IMG/VR virus record: IMGVR_UViG_3300042208_000036
Coordinates: 1 to 46,716 of that record
DNA from: a virus
Lineage: Duplodnaviria > Caudoviricetes
Reading direction: 5' to 3' (one strand)
Length of the DNA stretch: 46,716 bases
Shown here in pieces: positions 12,736-36,854 of this stretch; within the stretch, counting starts at the first letter, position 1, and each line of letters begins with the position of its first letter. Position numbers and translations under genes: made by a program. Below the pieces are notes generated by a model, which was not told the origin of the DNA, made no database searches, and saw nothing but the letters and a program-made list of their open reading frames with translations.

Positions 12736-12738
12736 TTG

Positions 12739-14130
12739 TTAAAGTCCTAAAAGTTTGTCAAATTCTTCTACGCTGTTTACGGTATTAGTTGTAAGTTGAG
12801 ATTCTGTTTTTGTTATAGAATTATCTTTTTTTCTAATAATAGTTACTTGTGAGTTGTCATTATCTGTAGTTTTGTTTTCTTCACTGTTGATAATTGATTC
12901 AAGCATTTTAATATTGTTTTCATATCCAGTTAATTTTATATAGTTTGGATGCTTGTTTGCATATTGATTAGCATTAAATAAGATTTGTTGAGTTTTATTT
13001 TTTAGTGCATTTGCTACAGCTTTATCACTCTGCCATAATGAAGCAAATGAATTTTCTAAAGTCTTCATATCTCTATCTGAAACAGTTCCAGTCATTGCAG
13101 TTTTTGCAAGTGGTTGTAAAGTTGATAAAAATGCAGTTCTTCCCTCTTGAGTAGTGTCGTCCCAATTTAAACCAGTCCACACTGAAAATTGATTTTTAAT
13201 TTCATCACTAACTCCAGCTCCACCGTTAGAAACTAATTTTTGAGCTTCATTTAGTTGGTAAACTGTTGGTGCTAAGTTTCTAAAAAACTTATCAACTTCT
13301 TTTGCATCTTTGTATATATTTGAATACATGTTTGCAGCTTCTGATTTTAAAGCTTTATCGTCTGTATTAAGTGCATTTGTTACAAATTCATTTGCATACT
13401 TCATATCTCTTACCCCTGTACCCATCTTTTTATTTAAACTGTATTCTTCATACCACTTTTTAAAAGAGGGGTCGCTATTGATTCTATTGTATATTTTTTC
13501 TTCCGTAGTTGGTGCGTACTCTTTAGGATTGTTTAAATCATAAAGATTTTTTTGTATTTCTGTTTGAGTTTTAAGTAAGCCTAACTTATCTTTTTCAGAT
13601 ACTCTCTCCGCATAAACCCCTGTCTTTGTTTTTTGACCAATCGTATCTACTACATTGTGAAAAGTATCGGCATCTATTTTTCCACTTTCATATTGTTTTT
13701 TTAAAAAACCTTTTGCCCCACCAATATCAAAGCTACCATCTTCTTTTGTGAACATACTCGAAGCCATAGCAAAATGTTTATCTTGCTGCTCTTTGCTCAG
13801 TTTGTTTTTATTTGTATCGATAAAATCATTTGTCAAGGTAACATATTTTGAAGTTTTAAAAGGATTTTTTTGCATATACGCTTTTGGGTCATCCGATGTT
13901 AAGAGTTCAGCAAATTTCTTATCATCTGCTAAAGTATCTGCCACACTTTCGTATTGAAGTCTTTTGGTGTCTGTTTCTATTTGTTTGAGTTCATTCTCTT
14001 TTTGTTGTTCTGCAATACCGCCAATATCAGTAAATGCTTTTGCAATAGCATGACCGTAGTTTATCCCTTTTGTTTTACCAACCATCTTAACTATATTTGG
14101 GTCTAGTTTAAATCTATTTGAGTCGCTCAT
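12739..14130 (-). CDS. Internal virion/ejection protein
   Basis: Helical, TGTVSDRDMKTL motif typical of podophage ejection proteins; precedes the giant protein. Confidence 0.55.
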   Translation of the reverse strand: MSDSNRFKLDPNIVKMVGKTKGINYGHAIAKAFTDIGGIAEQQKENELKQIETDTKRLQYESVADTLADDKKFAELLTSDDPKAYMQKNPFKTSKYVTLTNDFIDTNKNKLSKEQQDKHFAMASSMFTKEDGSFDIGGAKGFLKKQYESGKIDADTFHNVVDTIGQKTKTGVYAERVSEKDKLGLLKTQTEIQKNLYDLNNPKEYAPTTEEKIYNRINSDPSFKKWYEEYSLNKKMGTGVRDMKYANEFVTNALNTDDKALKSEAANMYSNIYKDAKEVDKFFRNLAPTVYQLNEAQKLVSNGGAGVSDEIKNQFSVWTGLNWDDTTQEGRTAFLSTLQPLAKTAMTGTVSDRDMKTLENSFASLWQSDKAVANALKNKTQQILFNANQYANKHPNYIKLTGYENNIKMLESIINSEENKTTDNDNSQVTIIRKKDNSITKTESQLTTNTVNSVEEFDKLLGL

Positions 14131-14415: not shown

Positions 14416-15355
14416 TCTTTTCTCCTGGACCTTCATCATCAAAATCATATATCCTATTGCCGTCAATATCCCTAGCATTTGTTTTTTGTCTATCAACATA
14501 CACATCTTCAAGAGGGTCTTTAAGAGTTGATGTTCCCTTCCAAGTCCCTAGCTCACAAAACTCTATCCAATCTAAGGCACTCAGTATATCTTTATGTTCC
14601 AAATCGTTATAAGTGGTAACATTATATTGTTTATTCAAAGCTCTATAAATAGAGGCTATAGTATTATCCAAGTTCATATTATGATAAGGTGCTATCTCTT
14701 TGGCTCTTTTTTCTACTGCATTTTGTATCGCTTTTCTCTCTTTTTTTGTCATAGGTTGGTATCGTAAGAAATTATAAGTTTTTCCAAGAACCTTATCGGT
14801 TCGCACCGATATTTCAGCTGTTATTTTTGTACGGTTTTCCACTTGCTCTAGTTTTTTATCCATATTGCCTAATGACTCTTTTACTTCGCTTTTAAGTCGT
14901 ACTATGTTGTTGTTGGTATCTATGGTTGTTTTTAAAAGACTCTCCATGTTTTTATTGATACTTACTATCGCATCAAAACTTTTCATCATAAAAGCTTGAA
15001 TATCTTGATTTACTGGTTGTATGTTGCCTTGTAATCTTTCTTTCATCATAAAGAAAGCTTTTACAAGATTTTTCTTAAATTCAACAACATTTCCCTTGTT
15101 TGATAGTAATGTCATTAAGAAAGTTGATTGTTGTTCATTTAGTTCTGCAACGGTAATATTTTGAGTTCCACCATTTGTTTCAAAGGGTGCTGTTTTAAAA
15201 AGCACCCTTCCAAATTCACTTATATTATCTTCATGTTTTTTTATTAGACTGATAATATCCTTGTGTCTTCTCTCTGTATGTTCCGATATTGTCATTGTTG
15301 ATACTACTGGTGTATCATCTATAACATCAATTTTAATTAGTTGGTTAGTTTGCAT
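14405..15355 (-). CDS. Rha-family regulator/antirepressor with ORF6C-like C-terminal domain
   Basis: VVSTMTISEHTERRHKDI...LNEQQSTFLMT...FKKNLVKAF. Confidence 0.85.
   Translation of the reverse strand: MQTNQLIKIDVIDDTPVVSTMTISEHTERRHKDIISLIKKHEDNISEFGRVLFKTAPFETNGGTQNITVAELNEQQSTFLMTLLSNKGNVVEFKKNLVKAFFMMKERLQGNIQPVNQDIQAFMMKSFDAIVSINKNMESLLKTTIDTNNNIVRLKSEVKESLGNMDKKLEQVENRTKITAEISVRTDKVLGKTYNFLRYQPMTKKERKAIQNAVEKRAKEIAPYHNMNLDNTIASIYRALNKQYNVTTYNDLEHKDILSALDWIEFCELGTWKGTSTLKDPLEDVYVDRQKTNARDIDGNRIYDFDDEGPGEKNEN
14505..14920 (-). repeat. 416-bp inverted repeat, copy B (partner 3575..3990)
   Basis: See copy A. Confidence 0.9.
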
Positions 15356-16364: not shown

Positions 16365-17969
16365 TTAAAGCTTATTAAGTCTTTTTTGTATTTGGTCCAT
16401 CTTTTCAAATACATCATCTTCAATACTTGAAGCTAGTCTTTTAAGTTCATTTGATAAATAGCTTTTTTGTTTTAGCTTACAAGCTTGAATAAAATCTTCT
16501 TTATCGTAAACAATGATATCATCTCGTATCAGTATTGGTCGTAAGTTTTCATCTTCTAGCCTGTCATCCATTATTGCTTGAAACATTTTATTATGTTCAT
16601 ACACTTCATAATCAATATTACCAAACATAAGGTTTACAAAGTCTGGTTTTTCAACAAGTGTTTTAAAGAATTTCTCATCTGCTTTTGTAAGTCCATTTGT
16701 TGTTGTATATGCTGTTGGTTCTTTTTGAATTTGTGTTTGCCCCAGTGTAATGTGATGTGATGATATACTTAAAAGTTTTGATAAAAACTCTTTATGCTCT
16801 TGGGCTATAAGTAAGTTTATTGTTTTTAAATAATCTACACACTCTTTTAAAGCTTGATTCTTACTATGTGGATTATTTAAATCAAATCCATCTGCTATAA
16901 ATTTCAAAGCATATTTTATAAGAGGGATTGGTTTTTTCATGATGTCATAAAGTTCTTGAACCTTTCCATCTTTTACCATATCTGCTGGATCAAGTCCTTC
17001 CTCAAAAAGAACCACTGCTCCATCAACTTCATGTTGACTAAGTAGCACACTTGCTTTATAAGCTGCAGTTCTTCCAGCATTGTCTCCATCATAACAAAGA
17101 AGTACCTTACAACCAATTTTCTTTATAAGTGGTATGTGTTGTTCTGTTAGTGCTGTTCCCATTGTTGCCACTGCTGTTTTAATATTGGCTTGGTGCATCA
17201 TCACCACATCAAGATAACCCTCTGTTATGACCATAGTACCTTTTTTGTATATATGCTCTTTGGCGATGTTGTAGCCATACAGATTTCTACTTTTATTAAA
17301 AAGTTTTGTATCTGGTGAGTTTAAGTACTTTGCTATCTCTTTGCTTTGTTTTAGAGTTCTTCCCCCAAATCCTATAAGTTTATTTGCATGATTTCTTATA
17401 GGGAATGTGATTCTCTCTCTTAGTCTTGCATATAGCTTATCACTATTCTTTGCAAGTACTCCAATGTCTACTGCATCTTGCAGGTTTAAAAAGTTGTCTT
17501 TTAGTACTTGAATTTGAACATCACTTCTTGGGGCATAGCCTATTTCAAAAGTTTTAATACTCTCTTTTGTGATACCACGGTCCAGCAGGTATTGAAGCTT
17601 ATCTTCTTTTAAATTTATCTCGTAGAAGTTATTGATTGTTTCCATGGTGCTTAAGTAATCTGTTTTATCTACTCCTGCTTCATACTCTAGTGTAAAGTTC
17701 ATATCAGCAGCTATTTTTTCAACTGCTTCTTGAAAGTTTAATTTATCATGCTCTTGTACGAATTTAATCGCATCGCCACCACACGAACACCCAAAGCAAT
17801 GATATATTTGTTTCGTTGGCGAAACTACAAAGCTTGGAGTATCTTCTCCGTGGAAAGGACAACAAGCTTTAAAATTTGCACCAGCTTTTTTAAGCTCTAT
17901 GGAATTACCTATAACATCAACTATGTCAATTTGTACTTTAAGTGCTTCAAGTGAACTTTTTTTAATCAT
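16365..17969 (-). CDS. dnaG: DNA primase
   Basis: CHC2 zinc finger CPFH..HCFGC, KYLNSPDT, TOPRIM EGYLDV and YDGD, DPAD. Confidence 0.95.
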   Translation of the reverse strand: MIKKSSLEALKVQIDIVDVIGNSIELKKAGANFKACCPFHGEDTPSFVVSPTKQIYHCFGCSCGGDAIKFVQEHDKLNFQEAVEKIAADMNFTLEYEAGVDKTDYLSTMETINNFYEINLKEDKLQYLLDRGITKESIKTFEIGYAPRSDVQIQVLKDNFLNLQDAVDIGVLAKNSDKLYARLRERITFPIRNHANKLIGFGGRTLKQSKEIAKYLNSPDTKLFNKSRNLYGYNIAKEHIYKKGTMVITEGYLDVVMMHQANIKTAVATMGTALTEQHIPLIKKIGCKVLLCYDGDNAGRTAAYKASVLLSQHEVDGAVVLFEEGLDPADMVKDGKVQELYDIMKKPIPLIKYALKFIADGFDLNNPHSKNQALKECVDYLKTINLLIAQEHKEFLSKLLSISSHHITLGQTQIQKEPTAYTTTNGLTKADEKFFKTLVEKPDFVNLMFGNIDYEVYEHNKMFQAIMDDRLEDENLRPILIRDDIIVYDKEDFIQACKLKQKSYLSNELKRLASSIEDDVFEKMDQIQKRLNKL

Positions 17970-17972
17970 TTG

Positions 17973-18188
17973 TCAACCTATAATATCATTGTAATCTGCT
18001 TGTGATTCAAGAATATCTTTTATCGCATCGCTTCTGATTCGTATAACTCTAAGGTGGCTCTCAAGCTTTTCAATGTTTGCTGTTTTTTCTTCAATGCTTA
18101 ACTCATTGCTAGTTTTGACTTGATTTAACATTCTTTTAAAGTCTTCTGGTTTTTTACCCTCTAGCTGTTCATCTGTGTAAACTCTCAT
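17973..18188 (-). CDS. Hypothetical protein
   Basis: Tightly packed operon; overlapping start/stop. Confidence 0.65.
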   Translation of the reverse strand: MRVYTDEQLEGKKPEDFKRMLNQVKTSNELSIEEKTANIEKLESHLRVIRIRSDAIKDILESQADYNDIIG

Positions 18189-18376
18189 TTTCTATAAACC
18201 TCTATATCTGTATATTCTAAAAACTTTAAATCGTATTGCTGGTGTTCTTTTATAAAATCTACTTTGTCTCTAAAACTTAATTTTTTAAACTTCTCTTTGC
18301 TTAATGGAGTATTGCTGAAGTCTATCTCTGTCTCGAGAAGGACTTCAAGTTTTACCTTGTGGATATCTTTTTTCAT
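18185..18376 (-). CDS. Hypothetical protein
   Basis: Operon packing; likely start MKKDIH. Confidence 0.6.
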   Translation of the reverse strand: MKKDIHKVKLEVLLETEIDFSNTPLSKEKFKKLSFRDKVDFIKEHQQYDLKFLEYTDIEVYRK

Positions 18377-18377
18377 G

Positions 18378-18581
18378 CTATACCTTTTGCGTGAACTCAA
18401 CTGTTGCATTTATGTAGTCTAGCTTGTATGATAAGTTAAAGTCTTTTGCTAATTTTTTTACATTTTCTTCTGTAAATTCCATATCTTTTTCTTCGCATAA
18501 AAACCATTCAGGCTTTTCTGGAAGCTCCAGCGGGAACCATAGTCCCATATAAATTGCTGTAATTGTAGATATCTTTGTCAT
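18378..18581 (-). CDS. Hypothetical protein
   Basis: Operon packing. Confidence 0.6.
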   Translation of the reverse strand: MTKISTITAIYMGLWFPLELPEKPEWFLCEEKDMEFTEENVKKLAKDFNLSYKLDYINATVEFTQKV

Positions 18582-19090
18582 TTGTTTTTCCTTTTTCTAT
18601 TATTGTTTTTTGGTCTTTTGTATTGAAGTTTTGTAAGAGAATCGTATATATCTCCTGCGACTCTCAAGTACTTACTGCTGTTTGCTTTTTTACTTAATAT
18701 AAATTTATCTATCGCATCTGTAAATGGTATAAATTTAAATTGTTTATAACCTCTAAGAGTGAACTCTTGGAGTACTGATAAAATAACTAGAGCAGGAATC
18801 CATCCCTCTCCAGTCTTTACATGCTTTTTAATTGTTTCTCCGATTGAATCATAAAACTTTTTTATTTGTGGAAATCTCACATATAAAATAAGCATATCAT
18901 CATAGGTGTAGTGCTGTTCTTCTACGATGCTTTTGATTGAAAGTAAGGTATTTCTTACAAAGTCATCTTTGTCTTCAATTACCTTTTCTCCTTTATCTTC
19001 TTTTTCTGCTTCTTCTACTATAAGTATTTCATTATGCATGTATGCACATACACTCATAAATTTTAGTTTTCTGTTGTCAATCAAAAACAT
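18578..19090 (-). CDS. Hypothetical protein
   Basis: 170-aa ORF within the operon. Confidence 0.7.
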   Translation of the reverse strand: MFLIDNRKLKFMSVCAYMHNEILIVEEAEKEDKGEKVIEDKDDFVRNTLLSIKSIVEEQHYTYDDMLILYVRFPQIKKFYDSIGETIKKHVKTGEGWIPALVILSVLQEFTLRGYKQFKFIPFTDAIDKFILSKKANSSKYLRVAGDIYDSLTKLQYKRPKNNNRKRKNK

Positions 19091-19093
19091 TAA

Positions 19094-19714
19094 CTAGCCT
19101 TTTATGATACACTTCTCATAGTCTGCTTTATACCAAAGCTTTTTATGCTCTTCATCTGTAAATTTTTCCCATTTGCCAGTTTCTGGATTTGTTGCACCTT
19201 TTCTACTGCTTACTTCTGCTATTGTTTCTTCCATGCATTTTTTTGCATCGTACCCTGCTTGTTCTGTAAAATTAATATTAAAAACATTCATATCACAACT
19301 TGCATCTATTACTGTATTCATGTTAAGTTCTTCTGGATAAAAATAGTACAGTCCCATAAATTCTTTTACTTTTCGTTCTATCTGTTCATCCCTGTAATGC
19401 ATCAACTCAAACAGTTCCTCTATTAAACATCTCACATGCGTTTTATGGTCATAGCCTTTTATTCCTCTATCTTTTCTCCAGCTCTTTAGGTTTTGAAATA
19501 TAGAAAATGATTTATCTTGTTTTAAAATATTTTCAAGTTGTTCATTGTAAGAATTTGCATCTGTACATTCTATAACTACCGGTTGACTAGAGACAAAGTC
19601 TCCAACATATATAATTGCTATTTGCAATAACTCTTTATTTGTTCCACATAATATAGGTGTCATCTTATCTTCTCCTAATTTTAGTTTGTTTCCCTCTAAA
19701 GAAATTTTTATCAA
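19094..19714 (-). CDS. MazG-like (all-alpha) NTP pyrophosphohydrolase
   Basis: LIEELFEL...IDASCD...MEETIAEVSSR...GKWEK pattern. Confidence 0.6.
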   Translation of the reverse strand: MIKISLEGNKLKLGEDKMTPILCGTNKELLQIAIIYVGDFVSSQPVVIECTDANSYNEQLENILKQDKSFSIFQNLKSWRKDRGIKGYDHKTHVRCLIEELFELMHYRDEQIERKVKEFMGLYYFYPEELNMNTVIDASCDMNVFNINFTEQAGYDAKKCMEETIAEVSSRKGATNPETGKWEKFTDEEHKKLWYKADYEKCIIKG

Positions 19715-19874
19715 AAGTTCCTTTTTTGGGTTTTTCTTCTTTTATTTCTTTTTCTTCTGGATGTAATTGTTCATTCCAGTATTTGTCAATATTAAGCCCA
19801 CACTCTTCGCAGTATGTAACACTTAAATTTTCATGCTGATGTTTGCATCTTGGACAATGTTTATAATTTGTCAT
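19665..19874 (-). CDS. Zinc-ribbon protein
   Basis: CPRC...CEEC; AGGA RBS before MTNYKH. Confidence 0.6.
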   Translation of the reverse strand: MTNYKHCPRCKHQHENLSVTYCEECGLNIDKYWNEQLHPEEKEIKEEKPKKGTFDKNFFRGKQTKIRRR

Positions 19875-19952
19875 TTCTTTTCCTCTTGTAAATGTATATA
19901 TACAGCTCTTGAAACTATGTATCCAAGAACAAAGTAAATAAAGCACTCCATT

Positions 19953-20222
19953 TTAATTCCTAACAATATTGTTTTTCAAATCTTCAAGTATAGATTCGAC
20001 ATCTTGATAAATACTTCCCTCGCTCATTAAAAGAGTTGTTTTTCTATTTGGAATATTGATTTGATATTCAATTTGAGTATCATCAAATGTTATGTTCATT
20101 TTTATTGTTTTTATTTTTCCTTGAATAATTTCATTTCCATGTAATATAAAAACAAAATCTTCAGGACTAAATTTTGTTTCAATTTTCATCTTCTTTTTCC
20201 TCTGGATACTGTATAAATCCAC
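19953..20222 (-). CDS. Hypothetical phage protein
   Basis: MKIETKFSPEDFVF-type small beta protein; true start probably ~20189. Confidence 0.6.
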   Translation of the reverse strand: MDLYSIQRKKKMKIETKFSPEDFVFILHGNEIIQGKIKTIKMNITFDDTQIEYQINIPNRKTTLLMSEGSIYQDVESILEDLKNNIVRN

Positions 20223-20622
20223 CCATCAGCTCTGTTATCTTTTCAAAGTCTTCTCTGCTGATATTATTCTTTTCGACATCATATGAACAGCAGTTTATGC
20301 ATAGCTCATAGTATTCATTATCTTCAAGCTCTTTGCTCTTTTTTGGATGCCATATCCTAAGCTGTCCATCTCCTAAGAAATGAAGAAGCCAACCATCTTT
20401 TTTAAATAGTTCTTGCTCTATAATGCTTATTGTTTCGTTTGCTTTTTCATGCTCGAAACATGCATCTGTTATAGAAGAAGAGATATCCCTTAGTACTTCA
20501 TTTTTTCTCTCTTCTTTTTTTTCTATATCATTTTTTATTCTTGTGATGCTGTCTATCAAAGTGCTAAGTTCATCTGTACTTATTTCGCTGTATTTGATGT
20601 CATCTATTATTCTATTTATCAT
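20179..20622 (-). CDS. Hypothetical protein
   Basis: Operon packing. Confidence 0.65.
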   Translation of the reverse strand: MINRIIDDIKYSEISTDELSTLIDSITRIKNDIEKKEERKNEVLRDISSSITDACFEHEKANETISIIEQELFKKDGWLLHFLGDGQLRIWHPKKSKELEDNEYYELCINCCSYDVEKNNISREDFEKITELMGGFIQYPEEKEDEN

Positions 20623-20869
20623 GCTGTTCGAACTCCTCTACAATATATTTGCTGTCTTTTTTAAACTTTTCTATATTCTCTAGTGTGCTGAATTTACCAT
20701 CAATTTTATTTTTAACTATCTCGTAACCGCTTTTGTGTTTTAGTATGACAATGTCTGCATTATGAGCTTTTTCGTTGCTTCCAAATACTTTATTTGCATT
20801 CGGCTGCATTATTACTAATACTTTTATTTTGTTTCTATTTTTAACTGCTGTTTCAATATCTTCTAACAT
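20612..20869 (-). CDS. Hypothetical protein
   Basis: AGGAG RBS; operon packing. Confidence 0.65.
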   Translation of the reverse strand: MLEDIETAVKNRNKIKVLVIMQPNANKVFGSNEKAHNADIVILKHKSGYEIVKNKIDGKFSTLENIEKFKKDSKYIVEEFEQHDK

Positions 20870-20870
20870 C

Positions 20871-21056
20871 TTATTCTCCTAATTCTTCTTTTATATCTCT
20901 AATTCTTAATTTTCTCAGTAGTCGTTGCTCTTCTCTAATTTCTTTTTCATCTTCAGTTTTATCTACAAAAAGGAAAGATTTCCCACCTCTTACATATTCT
21001 TTGTAGTCAATCCATGTCAATGTTGAAACTAATATCATAAATCCTATGTATGTCAT
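20871..21056 (-). CDS. Small membrane-anchored protein
   Basis: N-terminal hydrophobic segment; overlapping start/stop. Confidence 0.6.
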   Translation of the reverse strand: MTYIGFMILVSTLTWIDYKEYVRGGKSFLFVDKTEDEKEIREEQRLLRKLRIRDIKEELGE

Positions 21057-21235
21057 TTTTTATCTTTCTCTTTTTCTTTCACTATATATTTACCTTTTCT
21101 CCTGCTTACTGTTACTAGTTCTTGATTTAAGGCATGTTGTAAAATCTGAATAAAAGAATCTTTACTCATTGTTACCCCCCCCTCAAAAAACAAATTATTT
21201 ATATTTAATTCAATGATGTTGTTATTGTTTGCCAT
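21053..21235 (-). CDS. Hypothetical protein containing a G8 tract
   Basis: AGGAG RBS before MANNNN. Confidence 0.6.
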   Translation of the reverse strand: MANNNNIIELNINNLFFEGGVTMSKDSFIQILQHALNQELVTVSRRKGKYIVKEKEKDKK

Positions 21236-21236
21236 C

Positions 21237-22067
21237 TTATTCTCCTGTTTTAAAATGTTTGATAGCCACATTAATAGCTTCACTTTTGTTTAAGTGTCCA
21301 TCTGTATAAAATATACCTTGGTAAGATTTTTTATAACCTCTATATACCTCTACACTCCAATTTGTCATTTTTTGCCAACTCAGAGAAACATTTAGATCTC
21401 TATTTAAGCAGTATTCCTCAAGCTCTGCAAATATATCAGGAGTTTCTAAATTGTTTAATGTATTTTGAATAAGTTCTGGAGTCTCAATGTTTAAATATCT
21501 CTTTGTAATAATATTGCTTAACTCTTTTGTAGCTCTGATATCATCTAATGCATTATGTGCTTCAAGTTCTATATTAAAGTACTCGCATGTGATTTCAAGT
21601 TTATCACTTGGTGTGTCTATGAAGTCCATGTATTTTAAAAACTTTACAAGTGCAAAAACATCAAGCTCTTTATAATTGAAATAAGAACCATAAAACTTAT
21701 GATTATTGTCTTTAAACCATTCTTGAATAAATCCTGTATCAAAAGCTGTGTTATAGCCATTTACTATAAACTTATCCTCTTTATCAAATTTATCAATGTA
21801 CTTGTCTAGTATCTCAATAAATGTGTTAAAACAATCAACGCTATCTGCGTAATCATCTGATGTGATTTCATCAAGTGTTTTGTTGCTTATGTCTAGTGCT
21901 TTTTGGTCTACTTCTACTTCTTTATTGTATGTAAGTGGATTAATTTTAAATAATCCACTCTCAAGCTCTTCTCCATCAACTTCTATAATATAAGCTAACT
22001 CTCTCATGCCGTGTTTAACTTTGTCTAGTCCTGTTGTCTCCGTGTCTATATAAATTACTTTTTTCAT
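21237..22067 (-). CDS. DEDDh 3'-5' exonuclease (DnaQ-like)
   Basis: IDTETTGL, GYNTAFD, AHNALDD motifs. Confidence 0.9.
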   Translation of the reverse strand: MKKVIYIDTETTGLDKVKHGMRELAYIIEVDGEELESGLFKINPLTYNKEVEVDQKALDISNKTLDEITSDDYADSVDCFNTFIEILDKYIDKFDKEDKFIVNGYNTAFDTGFIQEWFKDNNHKFYGSYFNYKELDVFALVKFLKYMDFIDTPSDKLEITCEYFNIELEAHNALDDIRATKELSNIITKRYLNIETPELIQNTLNNLETPDIFAELEEYCLNRDLNVSLSWQKMTNWSVEVYRGYKKSYQGIFYTDGHLNKSEAINVAIKHFKTGE

Positions 22068-22579
22068 TTTGAATCCTCTTTAAAGTCTGGGTTATATTTA
22101 GTTTCAATAAATTCAACTGGCATAAAAATATTGTCAACTATTGGATTTTCTAGAAATTTATCTTTTACTGTAAATCTAAAGCCTTTACCTAATGTTTCAA
22201 ATAGACCATAACTCTTCCAGTTGCATATTTTTCCATCCTTATCTTTGTAACCGCTATTACACTCATAAGGACTTGTTTGTGTTTGTCCACACGCTGGGCA
22301 AATAAATTTTTTAGATTTTACTGCTTCCATTAATTCTTCTTGTGTTTCAAAAACTTTTACTTTGTCATCTAGCTTAGGGAAGTTGGCTTCTTGATAATAG
22401 TTTGCTGACCAGTAGTTTCTTTTGTCTTCAAAAGCTTGTAATATATCTCTTTTATCTATTTCTAAAAACTTGCTATAGCTTTCAACCATTTCTTTAATCC
22501 ACTCAAGCTTTTTATTAAACCGTTCATCATCATTTAGATTTACTCTTATTTGTTCTATTAATTCTTCGTATGTTTTCAT
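22064..22579 (-). CDS. Conserved phage protein with Cys cluster
   Basis: RNYWSANYYQEANFP, CPACG..PYEC..CNWKSYGLF; AAGGA RBS before MKTYEE. Confidence 0.75.
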   Translation of the reverse strand: MKTYEELIEQIRVNLNDDERFNKKLEWIKEMVESYSKFLEIDKRDILQAFEDKRNYWSANYYQEANFPKLDDKVKVFETQEELMEAVKSKKFICPACGQTQTSPYECNSGYKDKDGKICNWKSYGLFETLGKGFRFTVKDKFLENPIVDNIFMPVEFIETKYNPDFKEDSK

Positions 22580-22608
22580 ATTATTCCTTTCTATCTGTTC
22601 GCTTTCGC

Positions 22609-23634
22609 TCACTTCTCAAGTTTCAAGCTGTCACAAGCGAAACGAGAACCAATGTGCCAATACGAATACCAAACGTAATTGTTCCAAGCCGAGCAACGTG
22701 ACCCAGCATGCGCCCCACTGTCACGATTGCCACCAAGTATGAATCTGTCATCATCTTCACTTTCTTCGCCATAAGATGTGCTGCTCCATACCCACTGTAC
22801 CCCTGCAGCTTGTTCAATTCCATATTTAGATACAAAGTCAGGAATATGTTTTGTAGTGCCATCATCTAGGTCTCTTGCACTATCATTTTCTTTTACTCCA
22901 TCCATAGCTACTTGAAATTCATCTTTTGTTAAAAGTCTTTTTCTATGTGCTTTTGCTATCGCATCTATGACTGCACCTTTAAAATCTTCATAACCGTCTG
23001 GTATTTTTCTACCGTTATTGTTGCTTCCTGCTGCAATATGTTTACCAGCTTTTGATGTTCCATATTTTTTGTGTTCACTGTTAGTTAAATAAATATCTAC
23101 CCATATCTTTAGTTTTGGAATATAAACCATTCCTGATGGATCACATATTGGTCTATGTTTTTTATCCCAAATGCTATAGGCATTGATACCTCTTATTTTC
23201 TTGACTTGTTTTTGCGTTATGTTATTTCTAGCTTCAAAGTCTTCTGGTATAAGTCCATAGTGAAATCCACCGATAACTGAATATTCATCAAATTCTTCTG
23301 TGTCTGCTTGAGCAATAGAATATTTGTCATCTGCATCTTTTAAAACGCAATAATCTGTTCCAGCTTTTTTAAATTCATTTGTTTTTGGAAGATTGTTTAA
23401 CGATAGCCTAGTTCCATCAACTTCTATTGTGTGTGAATTTACTTTTTTGATAATTGCTTTTGATTTAAACGGTTTGTCTTCTTGAAAAAGACTTGATAAT
23501 TCAATTGTATTTACGCTCATTGGAATATTTTGCTGCTGTTCTATTCCTGTAATAAGTTTTACAATATCATTTGCATCAAAATCAGTTTTAACTGATACCT
23601 CTGTACCTTTTGTTTTTATATTGATTTTTGTCAT
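22609..23634 (-). CDS. Second (remote) DGR target: Mtd-like/C-type-lectin-fold protein
   Basis: Paralog of 30072..31181 (AGTDY, GGFHYGLIPE, IRGINAYS, GIEQAAGVQ); C-terminal VR. Confidence 0.9.
   Translation of the reverse strand: MTKINIKTKGTEVSVKTDFDANDIVKLITGIEQQQNIPMSVNTIELSSLFQEDKPFKSKAIIKKVNSHTIEVDGTRLSLNNLPKTNEFKKAGTDYCVLKDADDKYSIAQADTEEFDEYSVIGGFHYGLIPEDFEARNNITQKQVKKIRGINAYSIWDKKHRPICDPSGMVYIPKLKIWVDIYLTNSEHKKYGTSKAGKHIAAGSNNNGRKIPDGYEDFKGAVIDAIAKAHRKRLLTKDEFQVAMDGVKENDSARDLDDGTTKHIPDFVSKYGIEQAAGVQWVWSSTSYGEESEDDDRFILGGNRDSGAHAGSRCSAWNNYVWYSYWHIGSRFACDSLKLEK
22631..22740 (-). repeat. DGR variable repeat VR2
   Basis: 110 bp against TR with 8 mismatches, all at TR adenines. Confidence 0.95.
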
Positions 23635-23820
23635 CTTGTTTCTCCTTTTATTAGCTGACTTGAAGTCAACTTATAAGAGTACCTATTCAGTTTTTTTACA
23701 TTGAAACAAGATGTAAAGATTGTACGGAGGAAGAATTTATTCTCTGAATAGATACTCATATAAATAGACTTTAAAAGTTTCGTGAACGAAAAAAGCCGAG
23801 CTTCTGCTGACCGCATTTGG

Positions 23821-24118
23821 TCGGCAAAAACTCGGCAATTATTTTCCCTTTTTTGTCCTAGTTGTAGTGAAATTGGAGTGAAATCAAGTGTAAGTGCTTC
23901 TATGTTTTTAATATGTGTAAAAGTCCCGCTATTGCATTGCTTTTCGTGTTTTAGCTGTTTATAAGTTTGTTTTGATAGAATTTCGCCAATGAATGTCGCT
24001 TCGGACTCATAAGCCGGAGGTCGGGGGTTCAAGTCCCCCCCTTGACACCACTTCTTATCGGCTTCATAGCAATTTTCAAAAAAATCAAAAAACTTACTCG
24101 GCAAAAACTCGGCAATTA
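23821..24118. repeat. Integrase arm-type sites flanking the attP core
   Basis: TCGGCAAAAACTCGGCAATTA at 23821-23841 and 24098-24118; inverted AAAAGCCGAG at 23791. Confidence 0.75.
24001..24050 (+). other. attP core: 3' half of tRNA-Met(CAT)
   Basis: CTCATAA anticodon loop, GGGGG-TTCAAGT-CCCCC T arm, CTTGACACCA end. The 5' half is absent; the integrase is adjacent. Confidence 0.85.
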
Positions 24119-25327
24119 ATAACATGACTCTTGCTTCTCCTTTTCATTTACAATATAGAAAAAGTTGTTAGCCATTTCAATATCTTTTTTACTACTTTCG
24201 TGAGTAAAATATACATCATTTAAAACTCTTGAGCTTTGTGTCCATCCTCCAACAGATTTTAACCATGCTTCATCAGCTCCGTTGTTTTTCATGATAGTTA
24301 CATAAGTATGTCTTGATGTATATAAATCTTTGTCTTCGATTTTTGTTTTGTTTAGCAGTGGCTTCCAATAATATTTATTAACTGTTTTACTATCACTAAA
24401 GCAAGTATTATATTTGCTAACAAATACCCATTTATCTTGAGTTCTCTCTTCAAAATGTTTCATAAGCATATCTCTTGTTGTATGGTCCAACGGTATAAGT
24501 CTTGTGTGATTTTTAGTTTTATTAGTATTGTTGTTTTCTACAATTTGGTAGTCATTGTTTACAAAGTCTTCAATTGTAGAATTTCCAGACTTTTCTGTCA
24601 CTCTACCTTTTGTTATAGACCTTTTTAAATCAATAAAGCCATTGTTGAAGTCTATATCATCCCACATCAATCCTATAGCTTCTCCAGTTCTTACTCCAGT
24701 ACTAAAGATTAAATATAGGAATACTTTGAACCATCCCTCGCTCTCTTTGATAAGTGTAGTAACTTCTCCAGCTGTGTAAGGAACTCTTTTCTTTGTTGTA
24801 ACAGTTATTGCATCTGCTAGTGCTACATAATTTTTGTGAATAATATCATCGGCTACTGCTTTGTTCATTATTAGACTTAAGGTGTCTTTGCATTTTTTGG
24901 TTGTGCTTGTTGACCTTTTCTCAAGCATGAAGTTTTGCCACATTTCTATTTCTGTTGTTTTTATGTCTTCGATATAAAACAACTTTTTAGCTTCAAAATA
25001 AGGGAGTATATGATTTTTTAAATATCCCTCTTTTTCCTTTTGTGTATTTGTGTTTCGACCTCTTGCTGTAGCTTCAATAACTTTTAGACCATAAGATTCA
25101 AGATTTGTTTTTTCCTGTTTCGTATTTTCTTTATCAATAAGTTTTAAAAGAACGTCTCTGTGATTCTTTTTGATCCATGCAATATTTAATTTAGTAGCTT
25201 CTTTCCCTGTTGATTTTCTATAAAACTTTCCATCAACAGTTCCAAGAACATAAATTATATTACCGTCTTCAAGTTCTCCAGTAGTTTTGTTTCTCTTTTT
25301 TGGGATATCCCAACCTTTACCTCGCAT
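24116..25327 (-). CDS. int: Tyrosine integrase
   Basis: TGVRTGE (R), YTSRHT, GGW, VY catalytic motifs; beside attP. Confidence 0.95.
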   Translation of the reverse strand: MRGKGWDIPKKRNKTTGELEDGNIIYVLGTVDGKFYRKSTGKEATKLNIAWIKKNHRDVLLKLIDKENTKQEKTNLESYGLKVIEATARGRNTNTQKEKEGYLKNHILPYFEAKKLFYIEDIKTTEIEMWQNFMLEKRSTSTTKKCKDTLSLIMNKAVADDIIHKNYVALADAITVTTKKRVPYTAGEVTTLIKESEGWFKVFLYLIFSTGVRTGEAIGLMWDDIDFNNGFIDLKRSITKGRVTEKSGNSTIEDFVNNDYQIVENNNTNKTKNHTRLIPLDHTTRDMLMKHFEERTQDKWVFVSKYNTCFSDSKTVNKYYWKPLLNKTKIEDKDLYTSRHTYVTIMKNNGADEAWLKSVGGWTQSSRVLNDVYFTHESSKKDIEMANNFFYIVNEKEKQESCY

Positions 25328-25622
25328 AATGTCTCCTTATACGAAGCACCACATCTTGTTTCACGTATATTTTACCGCCTTTTTTCTTGTAGTCTTCTTC
25401 TGGTTCAAAGTTAGCTATTACATATTTTCTTAAAGTGTTTGCAGCTTTTCCAGTTAAATTTGATACTTCGGATAATGATAATTCATCTGGAATAAGAGAT
25501 TTAAGCTCTTGATGTTCAGCTTTAATCTCTCTAATCTCTGATAGTATGGTAAGAAGAAGTTCTTTTTCTTCGGTTATCATTTTTTGTTTCTCCGTACATT
25601 TATTACAATGTATTTTAAACAC
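25317..25622 (-). CDS. Excisionase-like HTH protein
   Basis: LSLSEVSNLTGKAANTLRKY; overlaps the int start; true start probably 25580. Confidence 0.6.
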   Translation of the reverse strand: MFKIHCNKCTEKQKMITEEKELLLTILSEIREIKAEHQELKSLIPDELSLSEVSNLTGKAANTLRKYVIANFEPEEDYKKKGGKIYVKQDVVLRIRRHYAR

Positions 25623-27967: not shown

Positions 27968-28435
27968 TTACCCAGCAAAGTTAAAAGCTGGTAATTCTGC
28001 TAAAAACTCATCTTTAGCTGGTAATGTTCTAGTTCCTGCAAATACTGAAGCTTGAATCAATCTTGCTGTTTCCCAAACTGTAACATTCCAGTTCCAAACT
28101 GCTAAACAAAAACCTTGATGTGCATAATCAGTGTTATCTTTATAGTTTGCACAGCTATGAACATCTCTAAACTGTAAACCATTTGCTTTGTTATAAGCAT
28201 CAACTTCTTTTTGGATGTATTCTTCAACATATCCAGTAAACTCTTTTACAGTTGCTTCTTTTGTAGCAGCTGCTAACTCTTCATCTCTTTTAGCTATGGC
28301 AGTTTCAACTTCGTTTTTTTCAACTTCTGTTTTTGTATCAAGATAAACATGTTTCTCTCCACTCATTACAACTATTCTTTTTGTTTGTTCTGACAAAATG
28401 TCGACCAATGGTCTTGCGTTAATTTGCTCTTGCAT
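27968..28435 (-). CDS. Tail fibre assembly-like protein
   Basis: IQKEVD...SCANY...WNVTVW...FLAELP pattern; overlaps the RT stop. Confidence 0.6.
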   Translation of the reverse strand: MQEQINARPLVDILSEQTKRIVVMSGEKHVYLDTKTEVEKNEVETAIAKRDEELAAATKEATVKEFTGYVEEYIQKEVDAYNKANGLQFRDVHSCANYKDNTDYAHQGFCLAVWNWNVTVWETARLIQASVFAGTRTLPAKDEFLAELPAFNFAG

Positions 28436-29417
28436 ATTCTAGTTCTCCTCTTAGTAAATTTAGTAAATTAAAACTATCTGCTCTTACTACATGCCCAAGC
28501 CATGAAGAAAGAAATATTCTCAATTTCTCAAATAGCTTTAATCTAATAAATCTTTTTATATGTCTTCTTGCTCTTGTAACAGAGTCTTTTCTTATTAGTT
28601 TAAAAGTTGATTTAATTCTCATTCCCAAGAAGTTAATAAACTGAACATCTGCTTTTTGAATAAACCACTTGCTGAATTTCAACTTCATATATAAATTTAT
28701 AAACCTATTTAGAACTTTTTGAAGTCTTGTTAATTCTTCTTTGCTGTGGCTAAGAATTACAGTGTCATCCATATATCTAAAATAGTGTTTTATTCTAAGT
28801 TTCGTTTTTATAAAAGCATCAAAAATATGTCCATAAATATTTGCGAATAACTGGCTTAATAGATTTCCAATCATTACACCTTTTTCACAGATAAATTTAA
28901 AAATAAGCCTTAGTGTTTTTCTATCTGTAATTTTCTTTTGAATTTTTTGTTTTAAAAGATTTGAATAAATGCTATGGAAGTACTTGCTGAAATCCATTTT
29001 TAAAAAAAATACTTCTCCAGCTTTTTTCATTTTTCTCAATGTAGATTGAACTTTATTGATACCTTTGTGAGTGCCTTTGTTTTTTCTACACGCATAAGAA
29101 GTACTATAAAAAGTTTTTTCAAATATTGGTTCTATCACATTGTTTATTGCATGTTGTACAACTCTATCCCTAAATGGTAATGAGTTAATTATTCTCTTTT
29201 TTGGCTCATAAACTAAAAAGCTATAATACTCTCCAATTTTATATGTCTCATTTATCATCTTTTGTTGTAAAATATATAGATTTGCTTCAAGGTTTTCTTT
29301 GAATTTTAAATGACCACTGCTATATCTATTTCCACCTTTCAATGCTTTTTTATATGCATCTCTTAGGTTGTCAATATCAACAATTTTGTCAAAAAGGTTT
29401 CTATATTTTTTACCCAA
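28419..29417 (-). CDS. DGR reverse transcriptase
   Basis: FRDRVVQHA, KMDFSKYF, IGNLLSQLFAN (DGR-type SQ), YFRYMDD. Confidence 0.97.
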   Translation of the reverse strand: MGKKYRNLFDKIVDIDNLRDAYKKALKGGNRYSSGHLKFKENLEANLYILQQKMINETYKIGEYYSFLVYEPKKRIINSLPFRDRVVQHAINNVIEPIFEKTFYSTSYACRKNKGTHKGINKVQSTLRKMKKAGEVFFLKMDFSKYFHSIYSNLLKQKIQKKITDRKTLRLIFKFICEKGVMIGNLLSQLFANIYGHIFDAFIKTKLRIKHYFRYMDDTVILSHSKEELTRLQKVLNRFINLYMKLKFSKWFIQKADVQFINFLGMRIKSTFKLIRKDSVTRARRHIKRFIRLKLFEKLRIFLSSWLGHVVRADSFNLLNLLRGELEYARAN

Positions 29418-29578
29418 TTTCTTTTCCTTTTTTTTATGTGCTGTCTTCTAGTTTCGATGTTTCACTACTCTTAGTTTTACAGACCCATTACTTTGTTTGC
29501 TTACGCAGGACAAATAAGCTGACTATTTTTAGTCTCACTACTTAACCCGTAAGTTAAATAAGTGCTATGAATAAATAC

Positions 29579-29697
29579 TCACAAGCGAAACGAGAACCAA
29601 TGTTCCAATTCGAATTCCAAACGTAATTGTTCCAATTCGAGCAACGTGACCCAGCATTCGCCCCATTGTCACGATTGCCACCAAGTTTCACGGTTGT
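29579..29697 (-). repeat. DGR template repeat (TR)
   Basis: Lies between avd and RT; 29 adenines and 9 AAY codons; matches VR1 and VR2 except at adenines. Confidence 0.97.
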
Positions 29698-30047
29698 CTT
29701 ACTTGCCCTTTATTTTTTATCATTGTTCCTACTATTTTTCCAACTTCCGCAAGAAGAATAGAGGCTACTTGATGTCTTCTTGGACTTATAAGCTTTCGTT
29801 TTTCATCTGCTAAAAATCGCAAGTGATAACGAAGCAACACCAAGGAAGCATCTGCTTCATATAATTTACTGATATGATTTGATTTGGCTGCTTTATAAAA
29901 AAGGTCCACTTGTTTAAACACAAGCTTAATGGTCTCTTCTTTTACAATTCCATGTTTTCTAGGAATTTGTTGTAAAACTGGATAAATGTAATTTACAAAT
30001 TCATTGTATTTTTCAATTACCACCAAATCGCTATCATATCTTTTCAT
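29688..30047 (-). CDS. avd: DGR accessory variability determinant
   Basis: 119-aa basic helical protein, EVGKIVG motif, between target and TR. Confidence 0.9.
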   Translation of the reverse strand: MKRYDSDLVVIEKYNEFVNYIYPVLQQIPRKHGIVKEETIKLVFKQVDLFYKAAKSNHISKLYEADASLVLLRYHLRFLADEKRKLISPRRHQVASILLAEVGKIVGTMIKNKGQVRQP

Positions 30048-30071
30048 ATAAACTCCGTTCGCTTCCGCTCA

Positions 30072-31181
30072 CTACACAAGCTTCAAGTGGTCACAAGCGA
30101 AACGAGAACCAACGTTCCAATTCGAATACCAAACGTAACTGCCCCAATTCGAGCAACGTGACCCAGCATTCGCCCCATTGCCACGATCGCCACCAAGTCT
30201 CACGGCTGTTGGAGAGCTTGATGTTGCATATATTTGCCCTCTAGTGTCTGTGTAGTCAACCCATACGAATGTTGTTGTTCCATATCCATTCATAAGGTCT
30301 TTACCCCAAACATATTGAACTCCAGCTGCTTGTTCTATACCAAATTTCGAAGTTAAGTGAGGATAGTGTTCTACTTTTCCAGCTACTGTTTCATAACCAT
30401 CTGTGCTTGAAGATTTACCCTCTGTTACTCCATATGCAATTGTAGGGAATTCATCGTAACCAATCATCTTTTTGCCATGTGAAGCTGCTATCTCACAAAG
30501 TTGAAACCAAGTAAGCTTTCCATATGTCAAAGTTCCATCTCCACCATACATCAGAGGAATTTTTGGAATAAGTCTTCCGTATGATGCAGCACCTGCAGCT
30601 ATAAAAGCTCCAGCTTTTGAAGTTCCATTTGCGATGTGTTCACTGTTTAATAAATAGATGTCATACCATTTACCATTAATATAAACCATACCCTCTGGAT
30701 TACAATTTGGTCTAAATTTTAAATCCCACATAGAGTAAGCATTGATACCTCTGATTTTTACCATGTCAGATTCAGTTTTGTTTCCTGTTGGTGCTTCTGC
30801 TTCTGGAATAAGTCCATAATGGAAACCACCAACAAGCCTATCGGCAGTTATTGTTTTATCTGCACTTATATAAAAAGTACTATCTGCTTTAGCATATACA
30901 TAGTAATCAGTACCTGCGGTTTTTGCACCAGTATCTAAATTTGTATTTAAATCTAAAGTTACATTAGCTGCTACTTCTACTGCTGTTGAACCTACAAGTA
31001 CTTGAGTTCCTGCTGGAATAACAATGCTTGATGGACCAGCTTTTAAAAATAAAGCTTTGTCGTAATCTGGCTTTTTGAAATTTACTGTTAATGCAATCAG
31101 ATTGTTCGCATTTTCTATCTCTTGAAATGTTGTAGTACCGCCACTGTGAATGATACCACTGTCAGTTATTTGAATTCCCAT
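30072..31181 (-). CDS. DGR target 1: major-tropism-determinant-like tail adhesin
   Basis: Follows the tail fibre; CLec-like C-terminus GG...AGSRC...GSRFACD carrying the VR. Confidence 0.9.
   Translation of the reverse strand: MGIQITDSGIIHSGGTTTFQEIENANNLIALTVNFKKPDYDKALFLKAGPSSIVIPAGTQVLVGSTAVEVAANVTLDLNTNLDTGAKTAGTDYYVYAKADSTFYISADKTITADRLVGGFHYGLIPEAEAPTGNKTESDMVKIRGINAYSMWDLKFRPNCNPEGMVYINGKWYDIYLLNSEHIANGTSKAGAFIAAGAASYGRLIPKIPLMYGGDGTLTYGKLTWFQLCEIAASHGKKMIGYDEFPTIAYGVTEGKSSSTDGYETVAGKVEHYPHLTSKFGIEQAAGVQYVWGKDLMNGYGTTTFVWVDYTDTRGQIYATSSSPTAVRLGGDRGNGANAGSRCSNWGSYVWYSNWNVGSRFACDHLKLV
30091..30209 (-). repeat. DGR variable repeat VR1
   Basis: 119 bp against TR with 9 mismatches, all at TR adenines. 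Confidence 0.97.
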
Positions 31182-31191: not shown

Positions 31192-32862
31192 TTAATCGAT
31201 TAATTTAACTATCGCACCATCATTTACAGTTATGCTGTTAAATGTAACTGGATTGATGAATGCTGCATTTGTATTTGCTGGAATTACTACATCCCCAAGT
31301 GTGTTTGAGTGCATGAAGTCTCCCGTGTCCATGTTTGATAGAAGCTCATTTATTTTTTGTGATGAATAAGTTTTATCAGCTGCTGGAGTAGTGTCGTTGA
31401 TTTTTGCATTTATTGTATTATTAACTTTTTGTGATGACCACACATTTGTTGTATTTGTAACTGTGTCAATAACTAAAGAGCTGTTTGTCATATCAGCACC
31501 GTTATAAACTTGAATAGTATGTGTTGATGTATCACTAAAAGTTATTGTATATGTATCAGTTGCCCCTGACTGTCCAGCTTGTCCACTTGCATCTGTTGTT
31601 GAAGTAAAAGAGATGTCTGTTATAGAAACTCCTGTATCTCCTTTTTCTCCTTTTTCTCCTTGCCCAAATGGTGACCCGCCATCCCAATCTCCAGCTGTAT
31701 CACTTCTTTTAAAATATATTGTAGATGGTTGTACATCTGTTGCAAGGTATGAAAAATCTTTGCCTTGTGCATCATATAAAGAACGATTTGCAAAAGTTCC
31801 AACTGCATCTGGATTAAATGCTTCTCCTCTTTCTCCTTTGAGACCTTGTGGCATATAAAGTGTGTAATTACCACTGTTTTTATCATATGATAAACTTGCA
31901 CTTTCATTTGATGCAATCATTACTACTTTTGGATTAATAGCAATAAGTTCATCTCTTATTTGAATTACTTGAGTTGTTTTTTCTGGCACTTGCAACACTG
32001 TAGACATATTATTTGATACATTTTGCACAGATGCTATATCATTAGCTACAGTGTCTATATTTGTTTTATTGTTTGCAACACTGTCAATATTTGTTTTATT
32101 TAGATTTACACCCTCTATATTGTCAAGGTTTGCTTCTACATCTATGATCTTTTGGATATGATCGTATAGAGACTGTAAGTTTTGTCTAGTATTATAAAGA
32201 TACTGGATCTCATCCTCTTTGTCTGCAAGAGCGATGATTTTGTCTATCCTTTGACCAAGTGCAATAACATCTCCAACACGATTTGCTAAAGTTTGAAGTG
32301 AGCTTGTAGTCTTAGCCCAGTAGTATGTAGGAGTGGCTTCTTTGAAGCTTCCAAGATATGCAGTCAATTCCACTCTATCTATATTTGAAGCACTACCGTC
32401 TGCATCTCTAAATCTAATAAGCTGCGGAGTAGTTCTTATTGCATCTTCTACAGTTAGCTCCGTATTGATAACATTTGCAGCATATAGTGTATGATTTGCA
32501 ATATAGTTTTTGATATCTGCATGAGATGTTAGCTCTAGTGTAACCTCTGTCACACCATCCTCAAGCAATGTCACAAAATCTATATCAAGATTTGTACCAT
32601 CATTCAAAACCAACCTTGCACCGCTATAGCTTACATGCTCTGTATCGCTATTGTTATTGAGTGCTAGATCAATGTCTATCTTTCTGTTACCTAGATAGTT
32701 GCTTTTTTTGAGGTCTTCTGTGATTAGTGAAATATCTATCTCACTTAATTCTTCCAGCCTTTGAATAGATTCCTCATCAAATAAATCTTTAGCTTCTTTA
32801 ATAATCTCAAGGTTTGCTACAAGTTGATTGACATTTGCTATAAAGCTTTCACTTACTTCCAT
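31192..32862 (-). CDS. Tail fibre protein
   Basis: NIDSVANN repeats, collagen-like GEKGEKGDTG, WSSQK/YSSQKI repeats. Confidence 0.8.
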   Translation of the reverse strand: MEVSESFIANVNQLVANLEIIKEAKDLFDEESIQRLEELSEIDISLITEDLKKSNYLGNRKIDIDLALNNNSDTEHVSYSGARLVLNDGTNLDIDFVTLLEDGVTEVTLELTSHADIKNYIANHTLYAANVINTELTVEDAIRTTPQLIRFRDADGSASNIDRVELTAYLGSFKEATPTYYWAKTTSSLQTLANRVGDVIALGQRIDKIIALADKEDEIQYLYNTRQNLQSLYDHIQKIIDVEANLDNIEGVNLNKTNIDSVANNKTNIDTVANDIASVQNVSNNMSTVLQVPEKTTQVIQIRDELIAINPKVVMIASNESASLSYDKNSGNYTLYMPQGLKGERGEAFNPDAVGTFANRSLYDAQGKDFSYLATDVQPSTIYFKRSDTAGDWDGGSPFGQGEKGEKGDTGVSITDISFTSTTDASGQAGQSGATDTYTITFSDTSTHTIQVYNGADMTNSSLVIDTVTNTTNVWSSQKVNNTINAKINDTTPAADKTYSSQKINELLSNMDTGDFMHSNTLGDVVIPANTNAAFINPVTFNSITVNDGAIVKLID

Positions 32863-33401: not shown

Positions 33402-33442
33402 ATACTATTTAAAATATCTGTTTTAAACTAGGTGGGTATTTT
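33402..33442 (-). promoter_or_regulatory. Putative late promoter, copy 2
   Basis: AAAATACCCACCTAGTTT-17nt-TAGTAT. Confidence 0.7.
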
Positions 33443-33485
33443 TTATAATTTTTTTGATATATTATTTAAAAATTTTAGGATAACA

Positions 33486-36646: not shown

Positions 36647-36854
36647 TTAAATCTTTTAATTTGTATGTTTCATAGTCTATTTCATTTACATATTCAACTG
36701 AAAAACATTTATATTCTTCATTCAATTCAATCCATAAAATTGCATACCCAAAGCTATCAAGCTCACTATCAATTAATAGATCATTTACATCTTCTAGAGG
36801 CTTTGCATTTTCAGTAACTAATATTTCATTTACTTTATCTATTATATCTTGCAT
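36621..36854 (-). CDS. Acyl carrier protein
   Basis: 77 aa, acidic, ELDSFG phosphopantetheine motif. Confidence 0.75.
   Translation of the reverse strand: MQDIIDKVNEILVTENAKPLEDVNDLLIDSELDSFGYAILWIELNEEYKCFSVEYVNEIDYETYKLKDLIERIQNAS

Follow-up and report, generated by a model that had tools for sequence, protein, structure and literature searches.

The window, by which we mean the whole 46.7-kb stretch of DNA analysed here and which makes up an entire virus record, contains a DGR with two targets, one of them (target 1) adjoining the tail fibre and the other (target 2) lying among the early genes. Target 2 is a real second target of the resident DGR. Most plausibly it is an early-expressed, soluble binder with a C-type-lectin fold, working off the tail tip and neutralizing variable host defence proteins inside the cell, a reading to which we would give a probability of about 0.5. 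Taken separately, a location of target 2 other than the tail tip is likely from comparison with relatives, and we regard an anti-defence or host-takeover ligand as an even bet. The features discussed are collected in Table 1.

Table 1. Coordinates in the window of the two targets, the DGR cassette and the attachment region.
Feature	Position	Strand	Remarks
Exonuclease, small genes, MazG-like gene, primase	16365..22067	-	co-oriented with target 2
Primase	16365-17969	-	
MazG-like gene	19094-19714	-	
Exonuclease	21237-22067	-	
182-aa gene	22064..22612	-	variably present; overlaps target 2 stop codon
Target-site hairpin 3' of VR2	22597..22612	-	short stem, GAAA (GRNA) loop
Target 2, 341 aa	22609..23634	-	beta-beta-alpha N-terminal module (about 1-35), linker, shortened Mtd beta-sandwich, slimmed C-type-lectin domain with VR2
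VR2 of target 2	22631..22738	-	7 adenine-only differences from TR
Inverted repeat in target 2 leader, conserved	23663..23771	-	109 nt; encloses -10-like hexamer
Arm-type direct repeats of attP, target-2 side	23820..23838	.	inferred integrase arm sites
attP core, 3' part of tRNA-Met(CAT)	24003..24053	+	
Arm-type direct repeats of attP, integrase side	24097..24115	.	
Tyrosine integrase	24116..25327	-	annotation
Excisionase-like gene	25317..25622	-	weak match
DGR reverse transcriptase (RT)	28419..29417	-	annotation
Phage DGR RNA spacer	29440..29564	-	Rfam RF03022, 80.7 bits
Template repeat (TR)	29579..29686	-	
Avd	29688..30047	-	annotation
Hairpin after VR1	30057-30072		
Target 1, full Mtd-type protein adjoining tail fibre	30072..31181	-	
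VR1	30091-30198		
Tail-fibre-like gene, upstream of target 1	31192..32862	-	

Annotation of the window gave a P22-like portal, capsid, terminase and lysis genes, a tyrosine integrase, cI/cro, an O-type initiator and DnaB, and the phage is temperate. Near-identical copies of both DGR targets are found on 48-kb contigs labelled Malaciobacter mytili, so that the host is an Arcobacteraceae species. At least half of the window was present in 22 of 24 sequencing runs among those listed, all of them from wastewater or bioreactors. The cassette has the order target 1, avd, TR, DGR RNA and RT; hence the cognate RT, Avd and TR all reside in the same genome as target 2.

VR2 differs from the TR at 7 of the 22 TR adenines scored and at no other position. 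Two non-adenine bases distinguish the TR of a relative (L001) from that of the window; in both phages VR2 has the allele of its own TR, and in L001 so does VR1. Since VR2 follows the non-adenine alleles of the resident TR, it has been overwritten from it. The same emerges from nine sets of TR, VR1 and VR2, in which non-adenine differences to the own TR numbered zero in six and 1, 2 and 6 in the others, the own TR always having fewer than any other TR. Two further relatives had VRs with 11 (L006) and 15 (L037) adenine differences from the TR and none elsewhere. The hairpins behind VR2 and VR1 are near-identical; that of VR2 has a shorter stem, poorer in GC, than in the published definition of the GRNA-loop hairpin downstream of VRs (7-10 bp), as given in the accessible part of that paper (Guo 2011).

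Diversification is also visible at the population level, as the VRs were all distinct in the six members of the target-2 90% cluster. In six out of six target-2 clusters (6-13 members each after length filtering, drawn from at most 15 listed per cluster) the diversity of the VR was 0.27-0.33 vs. 0.03-0.06 for the body. Ahead of the VR, the codon differences between target 2 and its L001 counterpart were 48 synonymous vs. 24 non-synonymous; judged by these changes, the body is under purifying selection. The two VRs appear to vary independently of each other: at TR adenines, VR1 and VR2 of the same genome were 0.46 identical vs. 0.43 across genomes (permutation p 0.20 and 0.17, 9 genomes), which argues for independent ligands. 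This bears on the decoy function that the earlier note had entertained and that we take here as a soluble protein with the specificity of target 1 that is released at lysis against receptor debris or masks the receptor. The scaffold and template that target 2 has in common with the adhesin would fit, as would the 7 of 11 VR2 substitutions in L001 that equal those of VR1. However, besides the lack of VR1/VR2 correspondence, neither a signal peptide nor a membrane segment is visible by eye in target 2, and one provirus described below (G001) carries a target of this type without a matching adhesin. The decoy has lost ground and we now hold it to be distinctly improbable.

The proposal that both targets share a Mtd/C-type-lectin body and have unrelated N-termini was borne out. 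Residues 30-339 are 42% identical to target 1 (E 3e-67) and residues 1-29 cannot be aligned. Structure prediction, one of the checks proposed earlier, was run for target 2 and recovered the Mtd-type beta-sandwich and the C-type-lectin fold (mean pLDDT 79, falling below 50 for residues 37-56 and in places within the VR region; pTM 0.74); the match of the predicted fold to Mtd has a Z of 22.9 and an rmsd of 3.2 Å, with model residues 55-339 on Mtd 60-380. The N-terminal beta-prism anchor is absent, the rigid Mtd match starting from residue 60, and the N-terminus is predicted as beta-beta-alpha. Target 1 aligns with Mtd only from Mtd residue 36 on, so that both targets have non-Mtd N-termini, and because target 1 also lacks the full Mtd N-terminus this difference alone says little. 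Among the relatives of target 2, 48 of 92 hits begin directly at the beta-sandwich without any N-terminal module. Others have the short beta-beta-alpha module, and among 22 proteins scanned three carry PF18909 and one a weak DUF6378; neither of these two families is known as a virion part. These modules align poorly among members, so a common ancestry of all of them is not established, and no usable atlas match to the N-terminal module was obtained. A representative search with the module gave three long proteins, whose many short matched stretches we took as noise.

Alignment of target 2 with target 1 and Mtd revealed three recurrent losses. The first comprises about 16 residues of the beta-sandwich (also missing in one tail-type row, L017). 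The second is an insert of about 11 residues whose PKIPL-type motif was found in none of 93 target-2 hits vs. 26 of 26 tail-type ones, scored with slightly different patterns in the two sets. The third takes away about 20 residues of the loop that precedes the VR, equivalent to the beta2-beta3 loop of Mtd, whose Tyr322 and Tyr333 brace the binding site of the neighbouring protomer according to the accessible part of Miller 2008. This stretch has 26-32 residues in 88 of the 93 target-2 hits vs. 49-54 in 9 of the 26 tail-type proteins (those measured), and a RGxxY motif kept in target 1 is absent in target 2. The composition of the shared body differs as well, with a fraction of charged residues of 0.29 in target-2 vs. 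0.18 in tail-type proteins and of A+G+S+T of 0.25 vs. 0.38, a contrast that holds in six of seven same-genome pairs and is marginal in the remaining one (L048). Within the window, target 2 resembles in composition the replication proteins, and also the portal and putative ejection proteins, and is unlike target 1 or the tail fibre.

The search with target 2 gave 797 matches, and among the 120 listed the best 93 are 269-430 aa long and carry Sulfurimonas, Arcobacter or Aliarcobacter labels where named. In a quick body tree of 86 rows, from which the VR was left out, all 17 labelled target-2 rows and 22 unlabelled hits fell on one side and 37 tail-type rows on the other (SH-aLRT 99). By this tree, target 2 and its Campylobacterota relatives form a clade of their own that spans Sulfurimonadaceae and Arcobacteraceae and is distinct from the tail-type Mtd proteins. 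The family is uncommon in the genomes searched, as only 2 of a 401-genome sample of the phylum contained a match. A separate long-branch group is formed by tandem pairs of short and divergent Mtd-like targets right before Avd-RT in two other loci (L087:9019-10891 and L092:710-2589), one of them near a cI-like gene.

In the window, target 2 is outside the tail module and, as had been described, heads the exonuclease-MazG-primase run at ca. 370 bp from attP (369 bp from start codon to attP core, with the genes downstream on the same strand). The 182-aa gene behind it is missing from L001, in which its start is fused to the exonuclease, and a joint skips it in all four sequencing runs compared. 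Among 25 non-redundant target-2 loci, 16 could be interpreted and 15 of these had early, replication or regulatory neighbours; nine could not, one (L108) with Avd-RT downstream and no upstream DNA and eight without any annotated neighbour. The early slots are of several types (att-exonuclease, DnaB-SSB, CII-O, small genes-SSB, Lar-like and HNH), and replication genes predominate among the neighbours, accompanied by the MazG-like gene in the window and by methyltransferase, dUTPase, Lar-like and PAPS-reductase genes in relatives. A single locus (L106) follows tail genes, and in three of the 15 (L002, L003, and L048) the terminase comes two genes later.

The location of the gene has a bearing on whether target 2 is nevertheless a virion protein, be it an alternative adhesin, a partner of target 1 in mixed trimers or a protein carried inside the virion and ejected with the DNA. 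The Mtd fold with its beta-sandwich retained and a VR2 as rich in aromatic residues as that of target 1 would agree with this, together with the L106 gene, the composition shared with portal and ejection proteins and the interpretation of similar second targets as receptor binders in the accessible parts of two reports (Baykov 2023, PMC10743442; Egorov preprint). Against it, the trimer-bracing loop is shortened in 88 of 88 hits measured, about half of the hits have no N-terminal module, nearly all interpretable loci are early slots, and in G001, a siphovirus without a Mtd-type tail gene, this is the only target found. We consider a virion protein unlikely. Thus, of the suspicion in the earlier note that target 2 is not a virion protein, the part concerning the tail tip is well supported by comparison (clade, shortened loop, non-surface composition, early slots, and the sole target of G001), and an internal role in the virion is possible.

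The G001 provirus has a lambda-like module that extends from the terminase to lysis genes and includes a tape measure, a tail fibre and a chaperone for the fibre. Its sole Mtd-like gene and sole VR found are of target-2 type, with Avd-TR-RT directly behind, in an early leftward run towards xis-int; the record is rated 34% complete by CheckV, and a part of the provirus could be missing. Another relative, the integrated G506, illustrates a different situation. Its DGR is a different one (RT 43% identical) with an unrelated target family, and the first gene after attR combines the N-terminus of target 2 (67% identity over 47 aa) with a body of that unrelated family, the VR of which has 13 adenine and 2 other differences from its own TR. 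The unrelated family itself splits, by alignment, into long tail-type members and short ones that have neither the N-terminus nor ca. 50 internal residues (16 and 14 aligned), the charged fraction being 0.26 in short vs. 0.15 in long members. VRs of the short members are hypervariable in three of three clusters. All four of their loci examined are early slots, with adenine/other differences between VR and cognate TR of 13/2, 18/1, 15/1, and 21/4, and one of them lies between CII and O, the slot that the Mtd-derived target-2 family occupies in L004.

It could be thought that target 2 is a bystander or a reservoir of spare VRs, that is, a degenerate duplicate that mutates only because it has retained the target signals. 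Its derivation from the adhesin with deletions could be read in this way, and one complete phage record (G005, L275:2175-3183) has both targets and Avd with an HNH gene at the expected place of TR-RT; no RT or TR match was found in it and its DGR is possibly frozen. However, the body is under purifying selection, the clade is old enough to include Sulfurimonadaceae and Arcobacteraceae, the hairpin has been kept with changed stem sequences, a second origin and a body swap have taken place independently, and G001 has no other target that we could find. These data make a bystander very improbable indeed.

The relative G506 also suggests how the genome of the window would integrate. The attP core matches tRNA ends in 143 of the 151 family genomes searched. 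In G506 the core is present twice, about 47.5 kb apart (attL and attR), with one arm at each, and the copy on the integrase side is a complete tRNA-Met. Its gene order cI-cro-DnaB spans the two ends of the window, and the slot of target 2 is the first inside attR. These att sites and gene order uphold the integration geometry that had been deduced earlier. The distance from target 2 to target 1 is 38.1 kb in the prophage form, as compared with the ca. 38 kb to the DGR cassette that had been predicted, and that from VR2 to TR 39.8 kb, which falls to 6.9 kb in the circular form (ca. 7 kb predicted). A terminal repeat was not found in the window, and it is G506 that suggests circularity; contigs bridge an intact attP in two sequencing runs. 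The location across attP turned out not to be special, as relatives use at least five other slots and non-adjacent targets are common in prophages, as far as the accessible part of Wu 2018 goes. An ORF of 164 codons at 23631-24125 (-) runs through attP as an open frame and overlaps both the stop of the integrase gene and the target 2 start. It is also open in L001 and L227 and its frame is broken in G506. With 13 non-synonymous vs. 4 synonymous differences to L001 it is probably non-coding and we did not retain it as a gene.

The leader of target 2 contains a conserved inverted repeat, in which a tract of 11 nt (23703-23713) is complementary to the ribosome-binding and start region of the gene (23632-23642). 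Its folding z ranges from -4.6 to -6.4 in four of four sequences. Among the 26 outer pairs, 21 are unchanged and none is broken, with three two-sided and four one-sided changes, and the pairing with the ribosome-binding site is retained in G506 despite changes on both sides; conservation was judged here on only four related sequences. The pattern suggests tight control of expression, timing apart; alternatively, the two halves of the repeat could be DNA operators on either side of the -10-like hexamer. Rfam gave no family match for the leader, a viral scan returned just two known relatives among 10 matches, and a sigma-70 scan was at chance level (15 vs. 17 expected). The 11-mer itself occurs exactly five times in the window (0.08 expected, chosen post hoc), at 4061(+), 16186(+), 23632(-), 23703(+), and 25352(-). 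It lies at the starts of both target 2 and ORF 4059-4292 and just upstream of the integrase start, and in antisense orientation in the target-2 leader and in the gap between primase and HTH, with no Rfam match. We take this layout to resemble a control circuit of the P1 C4 antisense type.

How might such a protein have come about and what could it do? Target 2 would descend from a duplicate of the tail adhesin, given that one TR can serve two genes only if their scaffolds are read in the same frame. The duplicate may then have lost the parts needed for a braced and exposed trimer and gained a charged surface. Avd, RT, and TR would act on VR2 in trans, so that its distance from the cassette would be immaterial. 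Once the cell is infected or the prophage induced, the gene would be transcribed together with the exonuclease-MazG-primase run, and the leader, by masking the ribosome-binding site, may gate the product. The ligand would be a fast-changing cytoplasmic protein of the host; given the gene neighbourhood and the sustained diversification, our guess is defence proteins. There are arguments against this soluble early binder. The fold is still that of Mtd, which needs avidity (Miller 2008, accessible part), something that a soluble monomer lacks. The composition of portal and putative ejection proteins leaves room for an internal virion role, and the gene after tail genes and the three loci close to the terminase do not fit well. 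Furthermore, a gut-virome survey (2026 preprint) reports, in its accessible part, no DGR on a known anti-defence protein.

The same evidence for a non-virion protein would serve a role in conflict between phages, where a cytoplasmic binder made in the lysogen or early in infection recognizes proteins of rival phages, either blocking them or setting off exclusion. The position as first gene within attR and a conserved leader of its own would suit this role, and a part of DGRs in immunity has been proposed (Belalov 2023, in its accessible part). However, in most loci the gene is translationally coupled to lytic replication genes, unlike a stand-alone moron, and no effector domain was found in the 22 proteins scanned. 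We regard this alternative as quite unlikely and prefer the intracellular binder of host defence proteins.

What is known of other systems can be compared as far as the accessible parts of the publications allow. The DGR of BPP-1 (PMC2408619, PMC3240598) has the same target-avd-TR-RT order, adenine-only mutagenesis, a GRNA hairpin after the VR and the Mtd fold. Unlike BPP-1, the window has a remote second target that does not adjoin tail genes and is shortened in the beta2-beta3 loop, in one insert and in part of the beta-sandwich (Handa 2016 provides the general nomenclature of the inserts). Quimbyvirus (Benler 2021, PMC8008677) also has one DGR and two C-type-lectin targets. The second of these is encoded outside the structural module and has been proposed to be a non-structural protein with a part in the conflict between phage and host. 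However, Quimbyvirus is a Bacteroidota gut phage, and the accessible part of that work reports neither a clade of paralogues nor a lost loop, a swapped body or a phage with this kind of target alone. The tgt2 DUF6273 targets of gut phages nd4/nd12 (Baykov 2023) and Toutatisvirus (Egorov, 10.1101/2024.10.15.618418) are likewise small, stand-alone second targets with a lectin fold; they lie at distances of up to 17 kb from the TR, some have a DUF3310-like N-terminus, and VR1 and VR2 are uncorrelated as here. They differ in scaffold and host phylum, and their authors read them as receptor-binding proteins. Adjacent and non-adjacent targets within 50 kb in the same prophage, as in the window, were described by Wu 2018 (PMC5758913), the accessible part of which assigns the second target neither a function nor a class of location. 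Viral DGR targets were classed mostly as tail proteins by Roux 2021, where remote targets were outside the scope. We found no report of the Campylobacterota target-2 family in the literature searched (subscription journals lay largely outside it, and supplements such as Wu 2018 Table S1 or Cornuault 2018 may list such targets). Remote non-structural second targets were known already from Quimbyvirus, and what is new here is a Campylobacterota family in which comparison speaks with unusual strength for a role outside the tail.

Phage DGRs usually figure as switches of host range that act on tail proteins, and the few distal second targets published rest on location alone and are often still taken as adhesins. 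The target-2 family adds comparative support for a separate function under selection, in the form of structural losses across the clade, a second family that has converged on the same pattern, a body exchanged in step with the resident DGR and a phage in which it is the only target found. One could go further and propose, as a tentative idea that may well prove wrong, a second general job for phage DGRs, an intracellular antibody-like library against host defence. It would have evolved at least twice in Campylobacterota phages by stripping the trimer brace of a duplicated adhesin, with the body re-fitted when the DGR is exchanged and the DGR sometimes kept for this purpose alone. Since there are cultured Arcobacteraceae species among the source labels, the function of the second target can be tested in a lysogen. 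A monomeric DGR scaffold adapted to the cytoplasm, if real, would be useful for the evolution of binders in vivo.

Several other features of the window deserve mention. Iteron-like repeats of 21 nt at 46215-46403, within the O-type initiator gene, mark the likely origin. A 14-bp palindrome has five perfect copies (1781, 9412, 23778, 32987, and 41800) at a spacing of 7-14 kb, some intragenic, and eight matches at up to two mismatches vs. 2.0 expected; the G506 prophage also has five copies, and it is possibly a binding site for a partition, packaging or host factor. The portal and two large putative ejection genes (6129-14130) come after the primase run, apart from terminase and capsid, an order repeated in G506. 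They are flanked by two ORF6C-type antirepressor genes, inside which lies a 524-nt inverted repeat (3524-4047 / 14448-14971, 87% identical) that could flip the 10-kb block. Within the virion module, a beta-ketoacyl-synthase-like gene, a possible acetyltransferase and a small carrier-like ORF (35356-36854), a region kept in G506 at 84%, may lipid-modify a virion protein. The same module contains a single opposite-strand gene (33432-34034, +), lipoprotein-like with a weak DUF2846 match and a homologue elsewhere in G506, which is a candidate superinfection-exclusion moron.
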